DNA of 64,000 bases from a bacterium (lineage in GTDB: Bacteria > Patescibacteriota > Minisyncoccia > Phycocordibacterales > UBA6899), in contig JAYTWK010000055.1 in the NCBI GenBank assembly GCA_043743715.1, forward strand, positions 10,242 to 74,241, read 5' to 3'. Under the pieces are notes generated by a model that saw nothing but the letters and a program-made list of their open reading frames with translations, had not been told where the DNA came from and ran no database searches. Of the stretch, positions 51,125 through 64,000 are shown piece after piece. The translations under genes and the position numbers were made by a program. Each line of letters opens with the position of its first letter. Positions within the stretch are counted from its first letter, which is position 1.

Positions 51125-52777
51125 TCACAGCCCCTTCACCATATACGTACCCTCAAGATGGTAGCCGAGATTGCGGTAGTATTGCCTCACACCGATACCG
51201 GAAATGACTGCGATTTTTTTATAACCTTTTTCTTTTGCTATGTTTTCTGCTTCTAACAAGAGTCGTCGCCCGAAGCCGACATGCTGACCCTGACTACCGT
51301 CCGCACCAACCTTGGTGTGCCTGCCGTAGGTATGGAGTTCGCGTATGAGCGCGGCACCTCTTAAGGTCGGAAGCGGCGCATCCTCTCCCCCGTTGTCGGG
51401 GAGGCGCAGACGAGTGAATGAGACAAGCTGTTGCTTATCTTTATTCTCATAACTCAGGAACATCTCGGTGCCCGAAGGCGTGCGATAGGTAATACTCGAA
51501 AGCGTGAAGTCGTCCGCGTTCACGACCGCCTCGCGCACTTCTCTGCAGCGGATACAGCGGCAGCGCCAGCCATTCATTTCCATATCCTTATCCATCACCT
51601 GACGCAGATTCGAGACTGTACTACCTGCTTTGATGTATGACGCGGGAATATCGCGATATACGCGCAAGATTCGTACATACGGCGGGACCAGCTTCTTTTC
51701 TTCGCGCATCACCTCGATGAGTTCCGGGTCGGTATATGCTTTGAATCCTCCTTGCTTCCAGGTTTCGTATAGTTCGCTGTGTTCAAGCACCATGCACGGA
51801 TAAATCTTGAGCATGTCGGGATGAAAATCTTCGCCTGAAAACAGTTCGGCGAACATACTGATGTCGCGCTCCTTAGTCGAACCGGGAAGATTTGGCATCA
51901 TGTGATAGACCATCTTAAATCCGGCATTTCGCAGGAGCTCGGTCGCGCGCTTTACTCGCTCTATCTTCATGTCGCGCTTCGTGAGTTTGAGTACGTCGTC
52001 ATCTAAATGCTGCACACCTATCTCGACCTTGGTCACACCAAATGTGCGCAGTCGTTCTATCTCAAACTGCGTGATGTAGTCAGGTCGCGTCTCGATTGAG
52101 AGTCCGATCATGCGACACTTCGCGCTCTCATTCTCATCCTGCAGTTTGAGGATATAGGCCAGTCTATCTTTGTATTCCTCGGTGCGTGAATCTTTGCCTG
52201 TACCGTAATCATTGCATGCGCGATAGCTGCCGATGAGAAACTCTTCTTGATACGATGGGTGATAGAAACTCCAGGTGCCGCCAATCACAATCATTTCAAT
52301 CTTGTCTGTCGGATGTCCGTTCATCTCGAGCGCCTTGAGTCGATTCGTGATCTGCATGTACGGATCGAAATCGTTCATCAGCGCACGCGCAGCTGCCGGC
52401 TCCTTGGCGAGATAACTCTTCGGCATTGAGACATCGGTCGGACAATAGGTGCACCGGCCCGGACATGCGAACGGTTTCGTGAGGAGTGAGACGACCGCGA
52501 CCCCGGAATTCGACTTCGTCTTTATCTTGCGCAAGAGGAGCAGCACTTCTTCGTCGCGCCCTTCGCTGCCCTCAGCAATCATTTCTTTATAGAGCGCGAT
52601 GAGCTCGGCCTGTGATGGCAGGTCACTTTTTCTTGCGGCAGCATGACGTACACCGTCTTTCGGGTAATGCATCTTGCTGCGGACATGCGTGAGGCGCGCC
52701 AGAAGCACATCATCCTTGATGATCTGCTTCCTCAGGCGATCAACGTCCTTATCGGTTTTGAGGGCTGCAAATAACAC
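51125..52777 (-). CDS. Elp3-family radical-SAM plus GNAT enzyme (tRNA wobble-uridine modification-like).
   Basis: 550 aa. Radical SAM cluster motif CPGRCTYCP (CxxxCxxC-like, C-x3-C-x2-C). C-terminal GNAT domain GFGRRLLLEAENIAKEKGYKKIAVISGIGVRQYYRNLGY. Length matches Elp3. Confidence 0.7.
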   Translation of the reverse strand: MLFAALKTDKDVDRLRKQIIKDDVLLARLTHVRSKMHYPKDGVRHAAARKSDLPSQAELIALYKEMIAEGSEGRDEEVLLLLRKIKTKSNSGVAVVSLLTKPFACPGRCTYCPTDVSMPKSYLAKEPAAARALMNDFDPYMQITNRLKALEMNGHPTDKIEMIVIGGTWSFYHPSYQEEFLIGSYRACNDYGTGKDSRTEEYKDRLAYILKLQDENESAKCRMIGLSIETRPDYITQFEIERLRTFGVTKVEIGVQHLDDDVLKLTKRDMKIERVKRATELLRNAGFKMVYHMMPNLPGSTKERDISMFAELFSGEDFHPDMLKIYPCMVLEHSELYETWKQGGFKAYTDPELIEVMREEKKLVPPYVRILRVYRDIPASYIKAGSTVSNLRQVMDKDMEMNGWRCRCIRCREVREAVVNADDFTLSSITYRTPSGTEMFLSYENKDKQQLVSFTRLRLPDNGGEDAPLPTLRGAALIRELHTYGRHTKVGADGSQGQHVGFGRRLLLEAENIAKEKGYKKIAVISGIGVRQYYRNLGYHLEGTYMVKGL

Positions 52778-52832: not shown

Positions 52833-53585
52833 TTGAACTGTGCAGCTTGTTTTTCTTTTTGTGCACGATACACTCAAGGAATGCGAGCTAATACTTCTAA
52901 AAAAATCCTTACCCAAAACCGAGAATCGTATGACAGGATGGCGAAAGAATTTTCCGGGACACGAAACACATTCTGGGAAGAGCTGGTATTCCTCAAGGAA
53001 CATGCGAACCCGGACATGCGGGTCTTGGATATCGGCTGCGGCAACGGCAGATTTTATCCGCTGGTGAAAGAGCGCACGGTACAGTATACCGGCGTCGATA
53101 ATTCACGAGGGCTATTAGATGAAGCGCACAGGAAATTCCCCGATGCAAATTTTGTACAGGGTGACGCGACAGCACTTCCCTTTCCCGACAATACGTTTGA
53201 TATTGCTTACTCGTTCGCGGTCGTGCATCACATCCCGGGACGCGAATTACAGAAAAAATTTTTTAGCGAGGCAGCGCGCGTGCTCTCCCCCGGAGGTACG
53301 CTCATCATCACTTCCTGGCAGCTCTGGCGCCCGCGTTATCTTTCACGACTACTTCCACAGCTACTCCGAAGTATTTTCTTTCTATCGCCGCTTGATGTTG
53401 GCGACATGATGCATACCTTTGGAAAGAATAAACATGTGCGATACCTACACGCATTCACCCACAAAGGACTTCTCCGTCTTATAGAAAGAAACGGCTTTGA
53501 TATCGTCGGCAGCGAGATAGTCGGTCGCGCGAGTGGCTCAGGCGAAAAAAATATTCTTGTCATCGCGACGAAAAGAATCGCATAG
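52833..53585 (+). CDS. Class I SAM-dependent methyltransferase.
   Basis: 250 aa. RVLDIGCGNGRFY, GVDNSRGLL, FAVVHHIPG, VLSPGGTLIITSW. Confidence 0.7.
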   Translation: MNCAACFSFCARYTQGMRANTSKKILTQNRESYDRMAKEFSGTRNTFWEELVFLKEHANPDMRVLDIGCGNGRFYPLVKERTVQYTGVDNSRGLLDEAHRKFPDANFVQGDATALPFPDNTFDIAYSFAVVHHIPGRELQKKFFSEAARVLSPGGTLIITSWQLWRPRYLSRLLPQLLRSIFFLSPLDVGDMMHTFGKNKHVRYLHAFTHKGLLRLIERNGFDIVGSEIVGRASGSGEKNILVIATKRIA

Positions 53586-53593
53586 GATCCCGA

Positions 53594-54646
53594 TCATGCC
53601 TTCCCGAGAAGGGCGAGAATGTTGGTGATGAGTTGCTCAAGTCTTGAACGCTCTGATACTTGTCGCAATAGAAATGCATTGAGTGCTGCCTTATCGCCAA
53701 GTTTGATATAACGCTCGATTTTGTTTGCGCAGTCTTCCGGGTCGCGCAACTTGAAAACCAGTTCGTCCGCATGCGCTCCGAAGTATCCACGGAACGCTTC
53801 GTTTGAAACAATGGCAGGAATACCTGCGGCCATTGATTCAAGAACCGCCTTATCCATGCCGCCTGTCGGACACAGATTGAGTGAGAGGTCACTCTTCCAA
53901 TAATAGTTCGCAATTTCTCTATTTGGCACATTGCCGACAAAAACGACGTCCTCCTCGAGTTGGAGTTCCGAGATCAGTTCGTGGAGCATCTTTTCGTACG
54001 CGATATCCCCTTCCATCACCGCTTCACCGATCAGCATCACTTGAAGCTTGTGTCCGCGGTCGAGAAGAACACGGGTCGCGCGGATAAGGGTATCGAGATT
54101 CTTGATCGGAGTGATGCGACCGACTGAAACGATGGTAAACATGTCGTCATCTCTTTTACTATTTGTCGGTTTGGCAAATTTCGCAAGGTCGACCGCCTGA
54201 CCCATGAAGTTGCGCTTTTTGCTTTCGATGCGGAAGCTCTCTGGGGTTGAGGTATATGCGACATCAATCAATTTCTCCGCGACGCGCAGCTTGAGGTCGA
54301 CATTGCGGTGGATATACCACAGCGCAATCTTCTTTCTCAGGAGTTTCCACAAAGGCGCGCCCAGGATTACGTACGGCGGATTCATGTGGCAGAACACATG
54401 TGTATAATCATTGCGATATTTCCAAGAGTACCAGTAAAAACGCCTGACATATTTAAAAAGCGAACGACCATTCTCTTTGCCGAGCGAGAGTACTCGGACA
54501 TTGGGCGGAAGATTGTATGTTCCGGTCTCAAGAGAAATGACCGTGAGTTGTTCGCACTTCTGTGAGAACAGCACCAGCCAGTCGTGGAAGAAGCCGAAAT
54601 ACCCGTCGTCCTTATTGACCTTTTGAGTGATAACGAGAAGTTTCAT
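53594..54646 (-). CDS. GT4-like (GT-B) glycosyltransferase.
   Basis: 350 aa. C-terminal region ISVGRITPIKNLDTLIRA and CPTGGMDKAVLESMAAGIPAIVSN (EX7E-like). Confidence 0.65.
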   Translation of the reverse strand: MKLLVITQKVNKDDGYFGFFHDWLVLFSQKCEQLTVISLETGTYNLPPNVRVLSLGKENGRSLFKYVRRFYWYSWKYRNDYTHVFCHMNPPYVILGAPLWKLLRKKIALWYIHRNVDLKLRVAEKLIDVAYTSTPESFRIESKKRNFMGQAVDLAKFAKPTNSKRDDDMFTIVSVGRITPIKNLDTLIRATRVLLDRGHKLQVMLIGEAVMEGDIAYEKMLHELISELQLEEDVVFVGNVPNREIANYYWKSDLSLNLCPTGGMDKAVLESMAAGIPAIVSNEAFRGYFGAHADELVFKLRDPEDCANKIERYIKLGDKAALNAFLLRQVSERSRLEQLITNILALLGKA

Positions 54647-54764
54647 CCCGTTAGAGGTAGGAAGTGCTGCACTTCCGTAGTTTATTGTTAAATATCATAT
54701 GCAGATTTTTTGTAATATTTTCATCATATCTCGCGTAGCACCCAAACCGCGCACCTCTAACGGG
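54647..54764. repeat. 118-bp intergenic element with 12-bp terminal inverted repeats (copy 2 of 3).
   Basis: CCCGTTAGAGGT ... ACCTCTAACGGG. An internal perfect 17-bp palindrome GGAAGTGCTGCACTTCC at 54660-54676. Abuts the start codon of the GT4 gene. Confidence 0.7.
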
Positions 54765-54800
54765 ATTCATTATTCATATAAGCGATTATAACAGAATGCG

Positions 54801-55649
54801 CTACTCGTCGCCGTAGACCTCACGCAGGACTTGCAGGCTTTTTCCAGTATCACGAAGCATCTTATTGTTCTTCCGAACAATCGCATCAAGAAGCGCGATT
54901 CCTTCTGTGTCATCCGGTAGACGTTCCACATATGATTCAACCATTGCAGCAAAATCCTTTATGAAACAACTACCTCCTGCACCGCGCCCATCTTTGTGGA
55001 TCGGATCAAGATATTTCTCGGGAAACCAGGGATTGTGCAGGATAGCTTCCTTCACCGACTCCCACTTAACGCCATGCGCATGCGCGAGATCGTACAGAAG
55101 ATTGGTGTAGACAATCATCATCACCCCCATGGTGTTATGTGTATATTTGATGAACTCGGCGTCGACGGCAGAAACCTTCATGACGTGTTTCGCTTTTGGG
55201 AATATCTCTTCGACGAGCTGTGCTGCTTCATGATGAGCGCGGGTATCGCCTGCAAGCCCGATAATATTGCGTGAGGGCCGATCGACATCCTCGCGCGCAT
55301 ATGCCTCACGTAGGAATTCCGGGACATGAAGGATGGTGAGGTGCGGATGCTCTTCCTGGAGCCGAGCCGTCGTTCCCTTCTGCACGGTAGATTTGATCAC
55401 CACCGTCTGTCCTTTCGAAAGAATAGTGAGCGCATCACGCACATAACTGTCGTCAAACGCACCGTCTACCGATGGGGTTGGTACCGCAATGATCACCAGA
55501 TCCGATTCCTGGATCCTCGATTTATTTTCGATATGCATAGGGTCAAGACTGTAGCGAATGACTTTGAAACCGCGGTCCTCAAAATTGTCGGCATAATTCT
55601 TTCCGACATACCCCTGACCGATGACACCGATGACAGGTTTAGTGTTCAT
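54801..55649 (-). CDS. UDP-glucose/GDP-mannose dehydrogenase-family protein lacking the C-terminal UDP-binding domain (paralog 1).
   Basis: The ORF is open to 55685. The likely start is MNTKPVIGVIGQGYVGK at 55649, overlapping the upstream paralog by 4 bp. Motifs IIAVPTP, VPEFLREAYAREDVDRPSRNIIG and the catalytic-Cys motif GAGGSCFIKD. Only ~35 aa follow the Cys motif. Confidence 0.55.
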   Translation of the reverse strand: MNTKPVIGVIGQGYVGKNYADNFEDRGFKVIRYSLDPMHIENKSRIQESDLVIIAVPTPSVDGAFDDSYVRDALTILSKGQTVVIKSTVQKGTTARLQEEHPHLTILHVPEFLREAYAREDVDRPSRNIIGLAGDTRAHHEAAQLVEEIFPKAKHVMKVSAVDAEFIKYTHNTMGVMMIVYTNLLYDLAHAHGVKWESVKEAILHNPWFPEKYLDPIHKDGRGAGGSCFIKDFAAMVESYVERLPDDTEGIALLDAIVRKNNKMLRDTGKSLQVLREVYGDE

Positions 55650-56656
55650 GATGATACGGTTTCTTGCGACATCTTGCACACACAAGTGGCTCCCTTGTCG
55701 TTCACCTTACACACACAGAGTACTTCATCACCGTAGACACTCTCAAGAAGGTCGAGGTCTTTGTGGGTGGAGCGCAGCAGGTAATTGTTTGTCGCTTCAA
55801 ACGAGCGCAGTAAGGAATGCGCATGCGTATCCTCCGGGAACACTTCTTCATAATGAAGACGCAACGCCGCGAAGTCCTTGATGAAGCAGTGCCCACCCGC
55901 GCCCCGCCCCGCGATCTTCCCCATATGCGTATGCTGATGCACCGGAAGCATGTGCGAAGCACCGATGCGCGAGTCGGCGCTCATGTTCCTTGCAATGATA
56001 TCCCAGTTTGCTCCGTGGTGCCGCGCGAGGTCATAGAGCGTGTTCATGTATACCACTTTCATATAGAGAAAATTGTTGCCGCCGTACTTGGTGAGCTCGG
56101 CCTCAGGCGCGCTGCAGATTACCTTGTACGGTGCGGGCGGAAGCACCGAGAGCACCTCCTCTGCGCGCGCTCTCCACTTAAGATCGTCGACGTACTTGCT
56201 CGGAATGCCGATAATATTACGCTCAGGCTCTGCAATATCCTTCTTGACCGAAGTCTCGCGCAAAAATTCCGGAGCATGCATGACGAATACTCCCGGATTC
56301 TCCGCTGCAATACGGTCAGTGGTACCGGGAATGATAGTCGATTTAATCACCACCGTCTGTCCGGGGCTCGTGTGCTTCATCGCCTGACGCAGGATGCTAT
56401 CATCGAAGCCTTCGGGTGTGGTCGGGGTCGGGACCGCAACGAAAATGATGTCTGCTTCTTTGAGCAACTCTTTGTTTTTGTTGTATGGCTCCTCATGCGC
56501 AAAGCGGATAGTAGAATGACCGCGCTCTTCGAAGTTGTCCGCAAGGTTTTTGCCGATCCATCCCTGTCCAATGAACCCAAGAGACAGTTTCTTGCTTGTA
56601 TTCATAGTATCCATAACTGCACATGCTCTCAAATTGTCGCACAACCCTCTATGCAT
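55646..56656 (-). CDS. UDP-glucose/GDP-mannose dehydrogenase-family protein lacking the C-terminal UDP-binding domain (paralog 2), with a Cys-rich tail.
   Basis: 336 aa. LGFIGQGWIGKN, FVAVPTPT, APEFLRETSVKKDIAEPERNIIG, GAGGHCFIKD. C-terminal tail CVCKVNDKGATCVCK. Confidence 0.55.
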   Translation of the reverse strand: MHRGLCDNLRACAVMDTMNTSKKLSLGFIGQGWIGKNLADNFEERGHSTIRFAHEEPYNKNKELLKEADIIFVAVPTPTTPEGFDDSILRQAMKHTSPGQTVVIKSTIIPGTTDRIAAENPGVFVMHAPEFLRETSVKKDIAEPERNIIGIPSKYVDDLKWRARAEEVLSVLPPAPYKVICSAPEAELTKYGGNNFLYMKVVYMNTLYDLARHHGANWDIIARNMSADSRIGASHMLPVHQHTHMGKIAGRGAGGHCFIKDFAALRLHYEEVFPEDTHAHSLLRSFEATNNYLLRSTHKDLDLLESVYGDEVLCVCKVNDKGATCVCKMSQETVSS

Positions 56657-57608
56657 CGTGCTTTTTCAGATGTGGCAAAAGATGCTCGACATGCCACTTG
56701 TATTGTTCGGCCAGCCCGTCTTCGAGTGATACTTTCGGAGTGAAGTCGAGAAGCAGCTGGGCTTTATCGATGATTGCCTCGGTCTCCTTTTGGTCGCCGT
56801 AACGTGGAGGACTCTTCACCAAGGGTGCCTTTTCGCCGACGATGCGTTCAATTATAGCGATGCCCTCGCCGGTGGTGTGCAGTTCGCGTGAACCGATATT
56901 GATAATCTCGCCTTGCGCTTTGTCTATTCTATCTAGCGCGCGAATGGTTGCATCAACGATGTCACTAACATAGGTAAAGCTACGCAGGTGTTTTTCGCTG
57001 CCTTCATGCAGCGGGAAGGTTTTCCCCGTCTTCATCGCATGGATGAGTTTATGGTACAGCTTCTCAGGCCTCTCGCGCGGGCCGAATACGGAGAACAGTC
57101 GTAATGCGGTGACCGGCAATTTATTGCTACGATATTTGGAAAGTGCGAGCTGCTCTGCCGCAAGCTTGGTCACCCCGTAGGGTGAGGTCGGCTTCGGGGC
57201 TACCTCTTCACTACCGCGCGCTGAAACTCCGTACACTGACGAAGTCGAGATGTGAACGAATGCAGAGAGCTTCGGGAGCGTGAGCGCATACGTGAGGAGT
57301 GCGTGTGTGGCAGAAATATTATTCTGCACATAGTGATCGAATTTGGTGCCCTGTGAGATGCCTGGCTGCGCCGCGAAGTGGAGGATCGCGTCAACATCCC
57401 CGAAGGTAGCAAAGTCGTGTGTATTGATGTCACTGATGACAACTGCGCCACCCTTCGCCTTCACATCACTCAAATTCAATTCTTTGATGCGAGGGTCGTA
57501 GTACGGGTCGAGATTGTCGATACCAATAACCTTATCGCCGCGAAGTAAAAGCGCCTCCGCAACATGAGAGCCGATTGCCCCACCGATACCTGTAATGAGC
57601 ACTTTCAT
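56649..57608 (-). CDS. NAD-dependent epimerase/dehydratase (extended SDR), e.g. UDP-hexose or UDP-uronate 4-epimerase.
   Basis: 319 aa. MKVLITGIGGAIGSHVAE. Catalytic YGVTKLAAE (YxxxK). Confidence 0.8.
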   Translation of the reverse strand: MKVLITGIGGAIGSHVAEALLLRGDKVIGIDNLDPYYDPRIKELNLSDVKAKGGAVVISDINTHDFATFGDVDAILHFAAQPGISQGTKFDHYVQNNISATHALLTYALTLPKLSAFVHISTSSVYGVSARGSEEVAPKPTSPYGVTKLAAEQLALSKYRSNKLPVTALRLFSVFGPRERPEKLYHKLIHAMKTGKTFPLHEGSEKHLRSFTYVSDIVDATIRALDRIDKAQGEIINIGSRELHTTGEGIAIIERIVGEKAPLVKSPPRYGDQKETEAIIDKAQLLLDFTPKVSLEDGLAEQYKWHVEHLLPHLKKHDA

Positions 57609-57615
57609 AGATGTA

Positions 57616-58662
57616 TCATCCTAAGAGCTGGAGTATCGTTTTAGCTAATTTTTCAGAGTCGTGGCGGATGAGGGTGCGGCGTAGGAGGTCAACCTTTGGG
57701 ACATTGGCGAGACCGTCAGAAAGCAAGTTCGTACCGATGAGCTCAAAATCACCCTTCAGACACTCAGCGCTGCAGACGACCGGCTCCCCTTCATCGGCAT
57801 ACTTGTGAATGAGCCGTGACGGAGCTTTCTTATTGTTGTAGATGACGACATCAAACACGCCCGTCGTATTTTTCCTCTTATCTTTTCCTTTGGGTCGGCC
57901 TATATATTTCTCCAGTACTTTTACATAATCCGAAACGACGAAATTGTCGGTATGACCCTGCTGACTCATGAGATTGGTGACGTATACTTTCTTGGCTTTT
58001 GAAGCAATGAATGCCTTCCCAACCCCTCTGACCAAGAAGTTTGGCAGGACTGATGTGTAGAGCTTGCCGGGACCAACGACGATGAGGTCGGCTTCTTTTA
58101 TCGCCCGCAGCGCTTTCGGATTTGCTTTGGCCTTCGGAGTAAGAAAAATTTTCTTAATGCCATATTTCGAAACCAATTGGTAATCCATGAAAGCGCTTTC
58201 ACCCAAGAGAACTTTACCGTTCTTGAGCTCGGCATTCAAGGCTATCTTATCGAGCGTCACCGGTATAACGCGCCCGCGAATATTCAAAATTTTGGAAGCG
58301 ACGTCGAGCGCGCTATCAAGGTTTCCGGTCACTTGCTCGAGGGTCGAGATGAAGATATTGCCGAAACTGTGGCCCTTCAAGTCGCCGCGGTCGAAGCGGT
58401 GGTTAAACAACTGGCGCATCACCATATCGGCATCGGAAAGCGCCACAAGACACTGACGCAGATCCCCCGGCGGAAGCACCCCGAATTCGTCGCGCAAGCG
58501 GCCGGTCGAGCCACCGTCGTCCGCCATGGTAACGATTGCTGTGAGGTCCAGAGGGTAATGCTTGAGCCCAGAGAGGACGGTAAAGGTACCAGTGCCTCCG
58601 CCGATCACGACGACCTTTTTATGTTTTTCTCCGGGATCCTTTTCGGGGTGTATTTGTTCCAT
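57616..58662 (-). CDS. CofD/YvcK (UPF0052, gluconeogenesis-factor/LPPG transferase-like) family protein.
   Basis: 348 aa. N-terminal KKVVVIGGGTGTFTVLSGLK and TAIVTMADDGGSTGRLR. Confidence 0.75.
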   Translation of the reverse strand: MEQIHPEKDPGEKHKKVVVIGGGTGTFTVLSGLKHYPLDLTAIVTMADDGGSTGRLRDEFGVLPPGDLRQCLVALSDADMVMRQLFNHRFDRGDLKGHSFGNIFISTLEQVTGNLDSALDVASKILNIRGRVIPVTLDKIALNAELKNGKVLLGESAFMDYQLVSKYGIKKIFLTPKAKANPKALRAIKEADLIVVGPGKLYTSVLPNFLVRGVGKAFIASKAKKVYVTNLMSQQGHTDNFVVSDYVKVLEKYIGRPKGKDKRKNTTGVFDVVIYNNKKAPSRLIHKYADEGEPVVCSAECLKGDFELIGTNLLSDGLANVPKVDLLRRTLIRHDSEKLAKTILQLLG

Positions 58663-59893
58663 GTTTTTGTTTTACGGTCTTATTTGCTTTTTCTGTATGT
58701 TGCTCTGCCTGTTCTTCGTTTGGTTGCGTGCGTACTTCCATTACTTGGGCTGTCGGCACAACATGCGCGGCATATTCCCAGCTTTTCTTATATAACGCAA
58801 GGGTTTCTACTTTGGTCGCAAGCTGCCGGACGGCATCTTTCGCTTTCTCGCCGAGGCTCGCCCGTAGCACATCATCAGAAAGAAGTCTGAGCATCGCGCT
58901 CGCAAGGGTCTTTTCGTCCGTCGAGGGAACTACCACTCCACACTCACCATCGTGGAGTACCTCCCCCGCGAGTCCGACGTCCGTCATAATAACAGGAAGT
59001 CCTGAGGCCATCGCTTCGACCACCGCCATCCCCCATCCCTCGTACAAGGACGGCTGCACGTACAGGTCAGCATTCTTATAGTACGAAGCGACATCTCTCG
59101 CCCACGGCAGGAGTACCACCACGTCTTTAAGATCCAAAGAGTTCACAAGCGAAAGCAATCGCTCACGTTCGGGACCGGAGCCGATGATAAGCAGCATCGC
59201 GTCCGCCTTCGCACGATGCACCTCTCTGAACGCGCGGATCAGCTTGTTGTAATTTTTTTCCGGCACAAGCCTGCCGAGCGAAAGAATAATGCGCGGATAG
59301 AGCGGATACGACTTATGGAGATCAAATGAGGGCTTGGCAGTAATGAAATGTTCTACATCAACAAAAATGGGGATAACGGCTATCTTCTCCGGCGGCACAC
59401 CAAGCGCAAGCACGTTCCTTTTCACTCTCTCTGAGACCACACGAATGCCGTCTGCGCGGGTAAGTAGAAATGATGCGATGAAAAATTCGAGCTTGTTACG
59501 CAAGCGCTCGCTTTGCCATGCGGCGCTCCACGGATCGGTATGCAATTGTAGCTGGAGCGGAAGCGCAAATTTTTTCGCCAGCAGATATCCAATCGCACCA
59601 ACGAGGAACGGGTCTTGCGCGCTCACGAGCCACGTATCGTTCAGATGTCTTTCTGCTAAGATCCTCTTCCCGAGTGCATAAGCATCGGGAAGGTATGCAA
59701 ACTTATTTTTCGAACTTGTCGAGTGAAGCGTGAGCGATGGACTCACCTCTTGCAGAGTAAAAGCACTACCCGAAGGAGCAAGTACAATGACGTGTATATG
59801 GTTAACGAGTGCCGCCTGCTCGATGAGGCGGGTACGTACAGGCGAATCGGCTTCGAACAGTGCCCTGTCGGTTGAGAACATCAGTAGTTTCAT
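58619..59893 (-). CDS. GT4-family glycosyltransferase with a Lys/Glu-rich C-terminal tail.
   Basis: 424 aa. GRLVPEKNYNKLIRAF, EGWGMAVVEAMASGLPVIMTD. Tail ...EQAEQHTEKANKTVKQKHGTNTPRKGSRRKT. Confidence 0.75.
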   Translation of the reverse strand: MKLLMFSTDRALFEADSPVRTRLIEQAALVNHIHVIVLAPSGSAFTLQEVSPSLTLHSTSSKNKFAYLPDAYALGKRILAERHLNDTWLVSAQDPFLVGAIGYLLAKKFALPLQLQLHTDPWSAAWQSERLRNKLEFFIASFLLTRADGIRVVSERVKRNVLALGVPPEKIAVIPIFVDVEHFITAKPSFDLHKSYPLYPRIILSLGRLVPEKNYNKLIRAFREVHRAKADAMLLIIGSGPERERLLSLVNSLDLKDVVVLLPWARDVASYYKNADLYVQPSLYEGWGMAVVEAMASGLPVIMTDVGLAGEVLHDGECGVVVPSTDEKTLASAMLRLLSDDVLRASLGEKAKDAVRQLATKVETLALYKKSWEYAAHVVPTAQVMEVRTQPNEEQAEQHTEKANKTVKQKHGTNTPRKGSRRKT

Positions 59894-61011
59894 GAGATGA
59901 CTTGCTTTAGTTCTTTTACAATATTGGTGATCATGCGTTCTTCGGTGAATGAAGAGACGAAGAAACCCGCTTCTTTTGCCATGTGCTGTGCAGCCTTGCT
60001 GTCCGAAAGCACCAGGAGAAGTCCTGCGGCAAGTGCAGCCTTGTCATTGTAGGCTGTAAGGATTCCCCGCTTACTTACTTGTTTATTTACCTCGAAAAGT
60101 TCAGTGTTTCCACCAACGGCGGTCGTCACCACCGGCGTCTCGAGCGCCATCGCTTCGAGAAGGAGGTGCGAGAGGCCTTCGTATCCGGTATTGAGCGCAA
60201 AACAGTCCGCCGCGCGGATGCGCTTCATGAGCGTGTCATGCTTCACCAAACCCAGGAACTTCACGAAGTTATATTCATGATTATTCGCGTACGCTACGTA
60301 TTCCGAATCATCCCCGCTTCCTGCTATCTCAAGTTGTACATCAGGAATATCTTTTTGAATAAGGGCAACGGCATCCATGAGTTTCTTAAATCCCTTCCAC
60401 GGTACGAATCTGCCAACCGAGATAATGGTCGGTCGGTCGATTCCCAACTCATGCCGCAAGTCCTTTTTCTCTTCCTTCGGAAGATTCGCTTTGAATGAAT
60501 TATAGACCACGACTATTTTTTTTGGTTCTATGCCCCAACTACTCACGATACCCTTTAGGTAATAACTTGGAGTAACCACCTTCGCAGAGTGACGCGCGAC
60601 TGCAGTTTGTAAAAATCGAAATAGCTTTACGAGCCATGGATAATCTTTGCGCTTTACGAATTCATCGAGATTTTCTTTGACTCCCGCACGTTGCGTGCCC
60701 TGCTCCCATGCGTAATCACCAACCATCTTCAGCACCAGGGGTTTTCCGGAAAGTTTCGAGACGATGTATGCGGGAACTCCGGCAGATACGAGATCGAGCG
60801 TGTAAATAAGATCAACGTCCTTCGCGAGCCGCCACAATGCAACAGTGTATCGCAAATGACTCACTATCTTCGGGTAATGTCTGAATTTACTGAACGAAAG
60901 AAGTGACACCTCGATTCCGGCTGATGGAAGTGCAATTTCAAGCGCCCGCGCATATGTCGCCGGTCCTCCATCGTCCGGCGGATATAGTGGGGTTGCAATG
61001 AGAATCTTCAT
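59890..61011 (-). CDS. GT4-family glycosyltransferase.
   Basis: 373 aa. N-terminal MKILIATPLYPPDDGGPATYA. C-terminal EGLSHLLLEAMALETPVVTTAVGG. Confidence 0.75.
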   Translation of the reverse strand: MKILIATPLYPPDDGGPATYARALEIALPSAGIEVSLLSFSKFRHYPKIVSHLRYTVALWRLAKDVDLIYTLDLVSAGVPAYIVSKLSGKPLVLKMVGDYAWEQGTQRAGVKENLDEFVKRKDYPWLVKLFRFLQTAVARHSAKVVTPSYYLKGIVSSWGIEPKKIVVVYNSFKANLPKEEKKDLRHELGIDRPTIISVGRFVPWKGFKKLMDAVALIQKDIPDVQLEIAGSGDDSEYVAYANNHEYNFVKFLGLVKHDTLMKRIRAADCFALNTGYEGLSHLLLEAMALETPVVTTAVGGNTELFEVNKQVSKRGILTAYNDKAALAAGLLLVLSDSKAAQHMAKEAGFFVSSFTEERMITNIVKELKQVIS

Positions 61012-61295: not shown

Positions 61296-61892
61296 ATGAA
61301 AACGTTCCATGAAAATCCGACCACGAAGCTTTCGTGTGTCTTCATCAAGCCGGAAGAACTCTCTCTGGCATTCGATCGGCTCGTGTCGGTCTGCACCGAT
61401 GTCATCTTCGTCGACCAAGCCGGTCGCTTTGTCCTGGCCTATCGCAAGATTCACTCGGCCTACGGCTGGTGGTGGAAGGGCGGCTCGAAGCGCAAGGGTG
61501 AGACGGACGCGGAGTCACTCTCGCGTCTCATGAAGCGGGAAATCGGCTTCGTTCCCGAAAACATTTTCCCGCTCGACGTTGTCGACCACTATTGGGAGAC
61601 GCGCCAAGAAGCGCCCCAGGAGCACGGCAAGCATGATGAACTCCACGTCAACTACGTCGAGGTCGACGAAGAGACGATTGCGAAGATCAAGCTCGACCCG
61701 TCGGAGTACGATGCAGAGCGCGGCTTCATGCGCTACGACGGCAGTCAGGATGTGCGCTCAGTCATCACCGAGATGTTCCGTCGCTACCACGCGCTCAAGC
61801 AGCCTGAGGTGCGCACCGCACTTGAAATTGCGAACCAGACGCTCGCGAAATTCGGCCTCACTGCCACGCCTTTCGGCCTGACCTCGAACTGA
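61296..61892 (+). CDS. Hypothetical protein, possibly a degenerate Nudix-fold hydrolase (paralog 1).
   Basis: 198 aa. ...VLAYRKIHSAYGWWWKGGSKRKGETDAESLSRLMKREIGF loosely fits the Nudix box G-x5-E-x7-R...E.GF, with unusual Trp residues. A paralog lies immediately downstream. Confidence 0.35.
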   Translation: MKTFHENPTTKLSCVFIKPEELSLAFDRLVSVCTDVIFVDQAGRFVLAYRKIHSAYGWWWKGGSKRKGETDAESLSRLMKREIGFVPENIFPLDVVDHYWETRQEAPQEHGKHDELHVNYVEVDEETIAKIKLDPSEYDAERGFMRYDGSQDVRSVITEMFRRYHALKQPEVRTALEIANQTLAKFGLTATPFGLTSN

Positions 61893-61968: not shown

Positions 61969-62526
61969 ATGAACCCTGGATCACACGATGAACTTGAAGT
62001 GATACCTCACTTGGGAACGTTTCACGAAGATCCTCATCATCACATTGAACCTATCCGGCTCACCGACCACGAATACGCGCTCGCGACTCAGGCGCTGCTT
62101 GTCGTCTGTACTGATGTCGTTCTGGTTGATGAGGAGGGACGCTATGTCCTCGCCTACCGCAGGCATCCCGCTGCAGAAGGCTGGTGGTGGAAGGGTGGTT
62201 CATGGAAAGCTCAAGATACTCGCTCGGAATCGATTGCTCGGATACTCGAGCGTGAACTTGGATATGCTCCACGGAAAGTTGTCATGCTTGCGGTCTTTGA
62301 TCATTTCTGGAGCTTGCGTGGCGAAGTCCCTCATGATGCAGGGCGACATGATATTATCTTTCTTCACTACGTCGTTGTTGACGAGGCAACTATTGCAAAT
62401 ATGAAACTGGATGAACGCGAATATGAATCCGAGCGCGGCTTCATGCGCTACGACGGCTCACAGGAAGTGCGGCCGGTGGTGAAGGCGGCATACGAGCTCT
62501 ATATGAGTACGCGCAATGGGCACTAA
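61969..62526 (+). CDS. Hypothetical protein, Nudix-like (paralog 2).
   Basis: 185 aa. VLAYRRHPAAEGWWWKGGSWKAQD... and a shared C-terminal ERGFMRYDGSQ(D/E)VR block with paralog 1. Confidence 0.35.
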   Translation: MNPGSHDELEVIPHLGTFHEDPHHHIEPIRLTDHEYALATQALLVVCTDVVLVDEEGRYVLAYRRHPAAEGWWWKGGSWKAQDTRSESIARILERELGYAPRKVVMLAVFDHFWSLRGEVPHDAGRHDIIFLHYVVVDEATIANMKLDEREYESERGFMRYDGSQEVRPVVKAAYELYMSTRNGH

Positions 62527-62544: not shown

Positions 62545-63540
62545 TTATTTACCAGTCCTTCGTCCCTTGATCCACTCTGCCGTTGGACCCAGTCCATTCT
62601 CAAGTGTGGTCTTTGGGGTCCAACCGATGAGCGCTGTAATCTTTGTGATATCAACCTCACGCCGGAGTGAGGTGTTGGCAGAAGTTTCGATCACCGTATG
62701 CGAGAACTCACGATCATCACCGAAGTGTTCCCAGATCAACTCGCCCAGCTCAAGGATGGAGTGGTGTGTTGCGTTGCCAATATTAAAGTCTTCATTGAGT
62801 ACACTTTCATCACCCTCGGCAGAGCGGATGACTATCTCGACAGTTGCCTCGACCGCATCATCGACATAGACGAATGCTCGGGTCGCTTCGGGGTCACCGA
62901 GAAATTCAAGTGGATATTGCCCGCTGAATACTTTTTCCAGCAGTGCGGGAATCACGTGAATGTCGCCGGGTGACGATCCCTTGGAATCCTCACCAGGTCC
63001 GTAGATATTGTGATAACGAATGATGGTGAACGGAAGTCCGTATTGCACCGCAAATGAACTACAGAAATATTCGCCAACGAGTTTTGAGAAAAAATATACA
63101 TTGGTGGGAGGTTTGATATCGGGGATATCTTTTTCGGTGTATGGAAATTTTGGCGGGTGCTGGAATACTCCTGAACTTGAAGAATATATGACCGAACCGA
63201 TTCCATTTTTGACCATTGCCGGATAGACCGCAGAATCGATGAGTGAGTTATTGGTAATGATGTCTGCCTGATGTTCATGCATGTAATTGAGCGGGCCAAT
63301 ATCTGCTGCCAAATGCAGGACGGTGTCGGCACCCCCGAGTGCGATCTCTGCCTCTTTAGGAATGCGCAGGTCATGGCATCGAAATTCCAGACCCGGCGGG
63401 AACGACATTCCGCGCTCTTCAGGACTTACGATATCAACGACAATGACTGGGTAGCCTCTCTTCTTAAGAGCAAGCGCGACACGGCTTCCTACATAGCCGG
63501 TACCGCCAGTGATGAGTATTGTTTTCTTTTGCGGGTTCAT
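62545..63540 (-). CDS. NAD-dependent epimerase/dehydratase (extended SDR), a candidate UDP-glucuronate 4-epimerase or decarboxylase.
   Basis: 331 aa. KTILITGGTGYVGSRV. Catalytic YFFSKLVGE (YxxxK). Overlaps the upstream UGDH gene by 4 bp. Confidence 0.8.
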   Translation of the reverse strand: MNPQKKTILITGGTGYVGSRVALALKKRGYPVIVVDIVSPEERGMSFPPGLEFRCHDLRIPKEAEIALGGADTVLHLAADIGPLNYMHEHQADIITNNSLIDSAVYPAMVKNGIGSVIYSSSSGVFQHPPKFPYTEKDIPDIKPPTNVYFFSKLVGEYFCSSFAVQYGLPFTIIRYHNIYGPGEDSKGSSPGDIHVIPALLEKVFSGQYPLEFLGDPEATRAFVYVDDAVEATVEIVIRSAEGDESVLNEDFNIGNATHHSILELGELIWEHFGDDREFSHTVIETSANTSLRREVDITKITALIGWTPKTTLENGLGPTAEWIKGRRTGK

Positions 63541-63995
63541 GTTGTTTTGAAAATGGAAGAATACCCAAGATTTGCATACGCGATACCTTCTCCTTCGATC
63601 ATCTCACGACGGTAATTATACATACCCCACGGGTCGATGAGCGCCTTATCCGGCTTCCCTTTCCAGGATAATGCGAGGTCGATGTTTTCGTAACGCGCAT
63701 TGCGGTGCATCAGAATGACGATATCTCCGTTTTCGGGAACCTCATGGAGTTCCTCTATCCTGCCAATCTTCCACTCGTCGAATACATCCGGAGCAACATG
63801 CGGATCATATCCACTGATACTCTCGTAGCCGCGTGACTGCAAAAGCTCTATGACATCATGTGATGGCGAACTGCGGACATCTGAGGTCGCCGGCCTCCCC
63901 TTGAATGCGAGACCCGCTACTACAATGTGCGGCTTGTCGGCATTTCCCGATTTGCGATGCATGGCATCAACGATATCTGCGACATGTGAGGGCAT
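63537..63995 (-). CDS. UDP-glucose/UDP-sugar 6-dehydrogenase, C-terminal (UDP-binding) part. The gene continues beyond the window edge.
   Basis: VAGLAFKGRPATSDVRSSPSHDVIELL matches the UDPG_MGDP_dh C-terminal motif (GLAFKxxTDDxRESP). The reading frame stays open upstream of the first Met through position 64000. Confidence 0.65.
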   Translation of the reverse strand: MPSHVADIVDAMHRKSGNADKPHIVVAGLAFKGRPATSDVRSSPSHDVIELLQSRGYESISGYDPHVAPDVFDEWKIGRIEELHEVPENGDIVILMHRNARYENIDLALSWKGKPDKALIDPWGMYNYRREMIEGEGIAYANLGYSSIFKTT

Positions 63996-64000
63996 CAGGT

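Follow-up and report, generated by a model that had tools for sequence, protein, structure and literature searches.

To our knowledge, all characterised UDP-sugar 6-dehydrogenases grip the nucleotide of their substrate with a dedicated third domain. In classical gene pairs, such as pneumococcal cap1K/cap1J and Klebsiella ugd/gla, a dehydrogenase that makes UDP-glucuronate (UDP-GlcA) is encoded next to a UDP-glucuronate 4-epimerase. In human UDP-glucose 6-dehydrogenase (UGDH), roles have been described for T131, E161/E165, K220, N224, C276 and D280, and for the trans-acting Arg260 of the DxRIG motif, which reaches the sugar site of the partner subunit and contacts the glucose (PMC3184952). A departure from the three-domain plan is found in a 64,000-nucleotide stretch of a patescibacterial contig (the window; JAYTWK010000055.1, positions 10,242 to 74,241, assembly GCA_043743715.1), where two adjacent genes, here named A and B, encode dehydrogenases that possess a complete UGDH catalytic set and the UGDH fold, with the UDP-binding domain naturally absent. 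The two genes and the codons of their catalytic cysteines lie as follows, the start codon of A overlapping the stop codon of B in an ATGA sequence.

54801-55649, minus strand: gene A, an A-type two-domain UGDH-like dehydrogenase of 282 aa; likely start codon ATG 55649-55647, stop at 54801.
55646-56605, minus strand: gene B, a B-type two-domain UGDH-like dehydrogenase of 319 aa; start codon ATG at 56605 (MNTSKK...), stop codon TGA 55648-55646.
54966-54968, minus strand: codon of catalytic Cys228 of A.
55886-55888, minus strand: codon of catalytic Cys240 of B.

The two proteins are 43% identical over their whole length, and an alternative start of B at 56614, the choice of the gene caller, would give 322 aa; the limits 54801-56656 given for the pair in the first-pass annotation, which had been made from the sequence alone, are outer open reading frame (ORF) limits. 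A Pfam scan matched the NAD-binding Rossmann domain (PF03721) with 68.8 bits in A and 59.1 bits in B (cut-off 27), the alignment being restricted to profile positions 70-180, and the central dimerisation and catalytic domain (PF00984) with 44.1 and 50.6 bits, respectively (cut-off 25.4); no match to the C-terminal UDP/GDP-binding domain (PF03720) was obtained for either protein at E<=0.01. This agrees with the first-pass description of tandem UGDH paralogs retaining the first two domains and lacking the third, and the motifs it quoted, PEFLRE...P(S/E)RNIIG, GAGG(S/H)CFIKD and the cysteine tail of B (VLCVCKVNDKGATCVCKMSQETVSS), are all present as quoted. Its estimate that both chains end some 35 aa after the cysteine motif was too short, since the end actually lies about 54 residues past the catalytic Cys (C228 of 282 in A). 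The N-terminal domain is trimmed as well, with about 35 residues between UGDH strands β2 and β3 missing from both proteins. Among NCBIfam equivalogs, the closest to A and B are the UDP-glucose dehydrogenases AglM and TuaD, with scores far below the cut-offs of these models, and scores on models of UDP-N-acetylmannosamine (UDP-ManNAc) and UDP-N-acetylglucosamine (UDP-GlcNAc) dehydrogenases are far lower than on those for UDP-glucose.

Conservation of the active site was counted over 237 homologues of at least 270 aa retrieved with A and B, and is given here in A numbering. T88, E111, K168, N172, C228 and D232, which together with E115 are equivalent to the human residues listed above, are kept in all 237 sequences, and E115, the second Glu of PEFLRE, in 231; the GxGxxG glycines (G11, G13 and G16) are likewise invariant, and an acidic residue occupies position 36 in 221 of the 237. 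Other invariant or near-invariant residues are specific to this family, namely H218 and R222 in the loop PVHKxGRGAGGxC and K270 in the C-terminal segment SGKDLDLLxGVYG. The loop preceding the catalytic Cys is longer than that of UGDH by four residues in A and eleven in B, and differs between the two. Where UGDH has DxRIG the loop of A reads NPWFPEKY, placing a Trp at the position of the trans-acting arginine, and A-types in general have NPW(F/Y)P followed by Lys or Arg four residues on; in B-types at least 90% of the sequences retain D(S/P)RIG, which is followed by an insertion.

55910-55957, minus strand: His-rich insertion loop of B, approximately residues 217-232, SHMLPVHQHTHMGKIA, between the DSRIG arginine and GRGAGGHC.

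Within this insertion S217, H218, M219, P221, V222, H223, Q224 and H227 show either invariance or a conservation of at least 90% among B-types. AlphaFold2 models gave overall predicted local distance difference test (pLDDT) values of 94.4 for A and 88.5 for B, with low values of 55-71 for the B loop. Of the solved structures, full-length UGDHs resemble the model of A most closely, the template-modelling (TM) score being about 0.8 when taken over the query and about 0.5 when taken over the target, and no solved two-domain relative appears among these matches.

Could A and B be frameshifted or truncated pieces of ordinary three-domain UGDH genes? This was the condition under which the first-pass annotation would have been withdrawn, and the searches for it came out negative, so that A and B stand as naturally domain-reduced dehydrogenases whose catalytic set is intact. 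Homologue searches returned 2638 matches with A and 5755 with B. The best 120 matches of each are 176-379 aa long and carry two Pfam domains only (a few being incomplete because they lie on short contigs), and PF03720 is absent from all 240 of them. Searched with a profile, 1.84 billion cluster representatives yielded 567 clusters (50% identity) at E<=1e-30, and in nearly all of the best 150 of these the length is 255-310 aa. A tblastn search with the neighbouring full-length dehydrogenase detected no C-terminal domain near the pair in any frame, and at the point where the third domain of UGDH would start the family has a conserved C-terminal motif of its own, SGKDLDLLxGVYG. The same genes are present, identical and intact, on an independent assembly (locus L001), and relatives at 56-81% identity are intact too. 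Comparison with the orthologues in two further loci (L002 and L003, 72-80% identity) revealed about 125 codons with synonymous differences only and 55-86 with residue-changing ones; because the former outnumber the latter, both A and B are under strong purifying selection. With hundreds of clusters sharing the length of A and B, an artefact of this kind is extremely improbable.

The family is large, widespread and conserved, and is without a characterised member. Judged by the source names of the homologue matches, which include Saccharibacteria, Lloydbacteria, Kaiserbacteria and Pacebacteria/Paceibacterota, it is apparently confined mostly to the Patescibacteria (candidate phyla radiation, CPR); a scan of genome contigs with one protein as query gave just two close relatives. 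Database entries are labelled 'hypothetical protein' or 'NAD(P)-binding domain-containing protein' at NCBI and, automatically, UDP-glucose 6-dehydrogenase at JGI, and literature searches on truncated or two-domain UGDH and on Patescibacteria envelope glycan genes returned nothing relevant. Identity clustering separates three subfamilies, with identities of about 50% between them and of about 25% to the full-length enzyme nearby. A-types are recognised by the loop NPW(F/Y)PxKY, B-types by ADPRIGxSHMQPVHQYxHMG, in which the DxRIG arginine is kept and a further seven-residue His-rich insert follows, and S-types by PEFLSE and ADPYIxNRY. By their sequences A and B belong to two old subfamilies, each of which is also found singly elsewhere. 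Since the pair is seen in some loci and single genes in others, the duplication is lineage-specific, and the ability of each type to occur alone argues against an obligate heterodimer.

A further source of variation is the C-terminal tail, for which the following features are relevant.

55649-55723, minus strand: C-terminal Cys tail of B, residues 295-319, VLCVCKVNDKGATCVCKMSQETVSS, with the pattern CxC-x9-CxC.
L005 6918-7997 and 8001-8912: Lloydbacteria B and A, respectively; B has an acidic helical tail of about 70 aa and no Cys tail.

The tail of B (VLCVCKVNDKGATCVCK) conforms to a consensus LC[VIL]C[KR]-x8/9-C[VT]C that is found in 30 of the 120 best B-type matches and in two A-types, and in L002 and L003 its residues persist while the codons change synonymously. 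It is a conserved, optional module and not a product of read-through. One Cys-tailed A-type (P0046) probably shares a contig with a Cys-tailed B-type, the longest contig of each measuring 5243 bp. The AlphaFold2 model places strands at residues 296-302 and 305-311 (block-mean pLDDT 71-74, with values under 50 at the very C-terminal end), so that the tail is predicted to form a β-hairpin with its four Cys on two adjacent strands. In other B-types the tail is absent or is replaced by the acidic helical extension, which occurs in 27 of the 120 best B-type matches; in the Lloydbacteria locus, A and B share the end motif D(L/I)TAIEEIITEKE. The tails have the look of interchangeable modules for docking or metal binding, and the CxC...CxC hairpin of B is probably an optional add-on for metal binding or protein–protein contact.

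The genomic surroundings of the pair are conserved as well. A and B belong to a minus-strand operon ordered GT4(373)-GT4(424)-YvcK-SDR(319)-B-A-GT(350), where GT denotes a glycosyltransferase, SDR a short-chain dehydrogenase/reductase, and the numbers are lengths in residues. Its other members, and a three-domain dehydrogenase about 7 kb upstream in the same cluster, are these.

59890-61011, minus strand: GT4 glycosyltransferase, 373 aa, a conserved cluster member.
58619-59893, minus strand: GT4 glycosyltransferase (GT4_424), 424 aa, the conserved upstream partner.
57616-58662, minus strand: YvcK/GlmR-family (CofD-related) protein, UDP-sugar-binding or a possible uridylyltransferase, TIGR01826.
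56649-57608, minus strand: SDR resembling UDP-glucuronate 4-epimerase, 319 aa, immediately upstream of B.
53594-54646, minus strand: GT-B glycosyltransferase (GT1_350), 350 aa, the conserved downstream partner.
63537-64000, minus strand: 3' end of a full-length nucleotide diphosphate (NDP)-sugar dehydrogenase, the last 152 of 453 residues (whole in L001), the gene running past the end of the window.

Orthologues of the operon genes recur in the same order in a Saccharibacteria metagenome-assembled genome and a relative (L002 and L003), in Lloydbacteria (L004 and L005) and in L011, and a core GT4-GT4-(YvcK-SDR)-DH-GT, in which DH is the short dehydrogenase, is conserved across L002-L011. Loci with a single B-type gene (L009 and L010) read GT4-GT4-GT4-DH-YvcK-x-GT, those with a single S-type or A-like gene (L006-L008) read GT4-GT4-GT4-DH-(SDR)-GT, and in L012 one A-type stands beside a GT2. 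The YvcK-family protein scores 311.3 bits against TIGR01826 (cut-off 196) and is syntenic in L002-L005 and L009-L011. The SDR next to B has syntenic orthologues of 70-81% identity in L002-L005 and in L011. In the PDB it matches 6ZL6/6ZLA best (E 2.6e-56), the Bacillus cereus UDP-glucuronate 4-epimerase UGAepi (PMC11519531), and MoeE5 next. Its full-length alignment to 6ZL6 has HISTSSVYG, SPYGVTK and GPRERP in register and, with the SDR Thr/Tyr/Lys triad in place, retains T126/S127/S128, Y149/K153 and R185 of the B. cereus enzyme (BcUGAepi), in which Arg185 and a Thr/Ser network have a carboxylate-binding role (PMC12338863). By sequence, then, this SDR is probably a UDP-glucuronate 4-epimerase. 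A second, putative neighbour of this kind is seen in L006, where the S-type dehydrogenase gene overlaps an SDR gene. The best PDB match of this SDR, 5U4Q, carries the deposited name 'dTDP-glucose 4,6-dehydratase'. The GAE-type assignment of the L006 protein rests on what we take to be GAE-type motifs and on the next-best matches, BcUGAepi and MoeE5. A further pointer to uronic-acid nucleotides is the long SDR of L010, which is nearest, though weakly, to a UDP-GlcA decarboxylase (UXS).

The first-pass annotation had counted the ORF at 63537-63995 as a full-length UGDH C-terminus. It is indeed the end of a dehydrogenase that bears the C-terminal domain (TIGR03026 score 354.5), although the enzyme is WecC/TviB-like, closest to UDP-ManNAc/UDP-GlcNAc dehydrogenases and not to UDP-glucose dehydrogenases, and 22% identical to A; it is not obviously a source of UDP-GlcA. 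The suggestion that A and B act on a CMP-nonulosonate finds no support: there are no nonulosonate genes in the cluster, and the conserved neighbours (the UGAepi-like SDR, the YvcK-type protein and the GT4s) point to UDP-glucuronate chemistry.

Given these data we consider it somewhat probable, reasoning from sequence and gene order, that A and B are minimal NAD-dependent UDP-glucose 6-dehydrogenases supplying UDP-GlcA and UDP-galacturonate (UDP-GalA) to the neighbouring transferases. The proteins would dimerise through their central domain as UGDH does, and oxidise the C6 hydroxyl of a gluco-configured hexose to the carboxylate with two NAD+, by way of a thiohemiacetal and thioester on the catalytic Cys. 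UDP-glucose would be the likeliest and most economical substrate because the sugar pocket and the catalytic residues are like those of UDP-glucose dehydrogenases, because SDRs that use UDP-GlcA recur as neighbours, and because the sole three-domain dehydrogenase nearby is of the ManNAc/GlcNAc type. The adjacent epimerase-like SDR would convert UDP-GlcA to UDP-GalA, and the flanking GT4 and GT-B transferases would build an acidic envelope glycan from both. In place of the lost domain, two candidate elements would presumably hold the nucleotide diphosphate, the longer pre-Cys loop with His218 and Arg222 and the C-terminal helix SGKDLDLLxGVYG with Lys270; the partner glycosyltransferases may assist. 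The pair itself may be a heterodimer, or two enzymes that differ slightly in sugar specificity.

Several observations weigh against this assignment. We know of no UGDH-family enzyme without a UDP-binding domain for which activity on nucleotide sugars is demonstrated, and Phe338, Lys339 and Arg442 of human UGDH are specific contacts. TIGR03026, the nucleotide sugar dehydrogenase model, scores A and B at 129.8 and 112.9, both below its cut-off of 189.8, and aligns with them over model positions of about 70-300 of 413 only; on two counts, PF03720 and this cut-off, the proteins fall outside the UDP-glucose/GDP-mannose dehydrogenase family as now defined. Nor is the epimerase neighbour universal, for L007-L009 and L012 have no clear UGAepi-like gene and the resemblance of the L010 SDR to UXS is weak. 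With 64 kb of the genome visible, a canonical UGDH may exist elsewhere. Finally, the glycosyltransferase fusions and half-transferases described below fit a substrate other than a nucleotide at least as well.

These fusions, drawn from the representatives of the profile search, bring up an alternative in which the dehydrogenase is assisted by a glycosyltransferase and oxidises glucose while the transferase holds it, or after its transfer to a lipid- or glycan-linked acceptor. In-frame fusions are found in both orientations, with GT1_350 at the dehydrogenase C-terminus in P0241 and P0245 and GT4_424 at its N-terminus in P0242 and P0247, each arrangement being represented by two separate 50%-identity clusters; the fused transferase families are exactly those that flank the dehydrogenase in the conserved GT4-GT4-DH-GT order. 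A dehydrogenase fused with a GT2 (P0326) and a 667-aa protein (P0255), which joins a short UGDH-like core to a multi-pass hydrophobic domain of about 380 aa that has no Pfam match, can be read in the same way. In addition, stand-alone ORFs of 165-169 aa in L008 (9860-10369) and L011 (6482-6979), 41-43% identical to window 53594-54646, correspond to the N-terminal half of GT1_350 only, each overlapping the stop of the short dehydrogenase and with no C-terminal GT half downstream. Loss of the third domain should moreover open the active-site cleft, to judge by the structural matches and PMC3184952. On the other hand, such a reaction is unprecedented in the UGDH enzyme family, genes adjacent in a pathway commonly fuse without a shared substrate being thereby proven, some of the fusions could be gene-calling artefacts, and the half-GT ORFs could be decaying genes. 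The neighbours resembling UDP-GlcA 4-epimerase also imply a pool of uronic acid at the nucleotide level. GT-assisted oxidation is rather unlikely, though the most serious competitor. Its more specific form, in which substrate holding has been handed to a docked or fused GT-B or its half, uronic acids are made at the glycoside level and not as UDP-GlcA, and the Cys-hairpin and acidic tails are docking modules, we hold to be unlikely. Of the related first-pass proposals, a lipid-linked sugar as substrate would fit this alternative, and that of a binding domain borrowed in trans has a mixed outcome. No standalone gene for a UGDH C-terminal domain was found in L001-L010 by tblastn with the window C-domain, which matched only the full-length gene, and the 169-aa ORF following the L008 dehydrogenase, tried as a candidate partner, is the GT half just described; the recurrent GT-B fusions and the half-GT ORFs leave room for a binding domain of another kind. 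Other fusions bear less directly on these questions. The dehydrogenase is fused with a GalE-like SDR in P0344. P0297 was tried as evidence for a UDP-hexose substrate and set aside, for although its SDR half is GalE-like its dehydrogenase half lacks GxGxxG and PEFLRE. Short UGDH-like cores are also joined to adenosine 5'-phosphosulfate (APS) kinase in P0323 (451 aa) and to an N-terminal helix-turn-helix domain in P0330 (361 aa).

Two further explanations were considered. A and B might be other small-molecule dehydrogenases, acting on a non-sugar alcohol in the manner of β-hydroxyacid or 6-phosphogluconate dehydrogenases (6PGDH), or one of them might be a regulatory pseudo-enzyme. Their two-domain plan is that of the 6PGDH-like superfamily, the first 100 or so residues match PF03446 (NAD_binding_2) marginally (22.3 and 27 bits, cut-off 21), and the trans-acting arginine kept in B is missing from A. 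However, the Pfam scan found no NAD_binding_11 in either protein, the helical domain being PF00984; the sugar-binding PEFLRE segment and the UGDH-specific Cys, Asp, Lys and Asn show no variation in either paralog, the genes are without exception part of glycosyltransferase operons, and both paralogs are under purifying selection, all of which makes this option quite improbable. Alternatively, the short enzyme might oxidise glucose 1-phosphate to glucuronate 1-phosphate, which the YvcK/GlmR-like protein would uridylylate to UDP-GlcA for the epimerase. The synteny of YvcK with B-type genes and the uridyltransferase activity of Listeria GlmR (PMC10128056) are in keeping with such a route, and the invariant His, Arg and Lys around the Cys loop could bind a single phosphate. 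Yet S-type loci and some A-type loci have no YvcK, proteins of this family bind UDP-sugars and are better known as regulators (PMC7525490), and the route has neither direct evidence nor a bacterial precedent, so that we regard it as very improbable. A minimal UDP-glucose 6-dehydrogenase is accordingly the interpretation preferred here.

Beyond the operon, the cluster contains additional modules. The full-length dehydrogenase overlaps a gene for a 331-aa SDR, the two forming a separate minus-strand module (62545-64000); the best PDB matches of this SDR are Thermotoga maritima GalE, GDP-mannose 3,5-epimerase and UXS, and the module suggests that the same glycan also carries another sugar, acidic or modified, of a different kind. 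Inside the cluster, on the strand opposite to the glycan operon, lie two tandem Nudix-like paralogs of 198 and 185 aa (61296-61892 and 61969-62526, plus strand), 47% identical and sharing the motif GWWWKGGS. They match PF00293 only weakly and no NCBIfam model at all, and might act as nucleotide-sugar pyrophosphatases. In L009 (10858-11439) and L010 (10828-11325), small ORFs of 165-193 aa follow YvcK, begin with FxDFDRTIF (a DxDxT motif) and weakly match haloacid dehalogenase (HAD) phosphatases; unrelated to the Nudix-like pair of the window, they hint at a phosphorylated intermediate in the single-B-type version of the pathway. The operon is flanked by genes for an ELP3-like radical-SAM (S-adenosylmethionine) protein with Radical_SAM and Radical_SAM_C domains (51125-52777, minus strand) and for a class I methyltransferase (52833-53585, plus strand), which stay syntenic with it in L002-L005 and L011. 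The 154 nt between A and GT1_350 (54647-54800, minus strand) can form a long-range stem, a perfect 12-nt pair CCCGUUAGAGGU...ACCUCUAACGGG that abuts the GT start codon, enclosing an inner hairpin GGAAGUGC/GCACUUCC. Its minimum free energy is -43.9 kcal/mol (z = -3.7, with none of 200 shuffles as stable), and Rfam identified no known RNA family in the window, this segment included. The stem could occlude the ribosome-binding region of the GT gene, or act as a terminator or attenuator.

If the nucleotide-binding domain is truly dispensable, its role being taken by a loop and a helix, A and B would represent a minimal UGDH that is useful for enzyme engineering; if it is not, their substrate would be different from a free nucleotide sugar. 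In both cases the answer would inform how ultra-small, host-dependent bacteria, whose cell-surface glycans are almost unstudied, build these glycans, and the fixed operon GT4-GT4-DH-GT, in which YvcK and the epimerase may be present or absent, constitutes a defined and testable pathway.

Among known systems, UDP-glucose 6-dehydrogenase (Ugd/TuaD/AglM, human UGDH; PDB 3VTF, 3GG2, 2Q3E and 1DLI) is nearest to A and B by both structure and sequence. They share with it the Rossmann GxGxxG, the central helical domain, PEFLRE and the catalytic Thr, Glu, Lys, Asn, Cys and Asp in register. They differ from it in lacking the PF03720 domain with its GLAFK motif and some 35 residues of the N-domain, and in having a longer pre-Cys loop with an invariant His and Arg, a C-terminal helix of their own, and optional Cys-hairpin or roughly 70-aa acidic tails. 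The UDP-ManNAc and UDP-GlcNAc dehydrogenases WecC, Cap5O and TviB are members of the same superfamily with the same four-electron chemistry, and one WecC/TviB-type gene accompanies A and B in their cluster; these enzymes, however, have three domains, whereas A and B have two and are only about 22-25% identical to them. With the β-hydroxyacid and 6-phosphogluconate dehydrogenases (the NAD_binding_2 family) A and B have in common a Rossmann domain followed by an all-helical dimerisation domain within about 290 aa, but the helical domain of A and B corresponds to the central domain of UGDH, Cys nucleophile included, and not to NAD_binding_11, and their context is glycan synthesis rather than organic-acid metabolism. 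Closest in genetic organisation are the classical pairs cap1K/cap1J and ugd/gla, in which, as here, a dehydrogenase adjoins an SDR of the GAE/UGAepi type, the UDP-GlcA 4-epimerase-like gene in the case of A and B, within a polysaccharide cluster. Unlike those pairs, the present locus employs a two-domain dehydrogenase, duplicated in tandem, and associates it with YvcK and with three GT-B transferases that form a fixed set.

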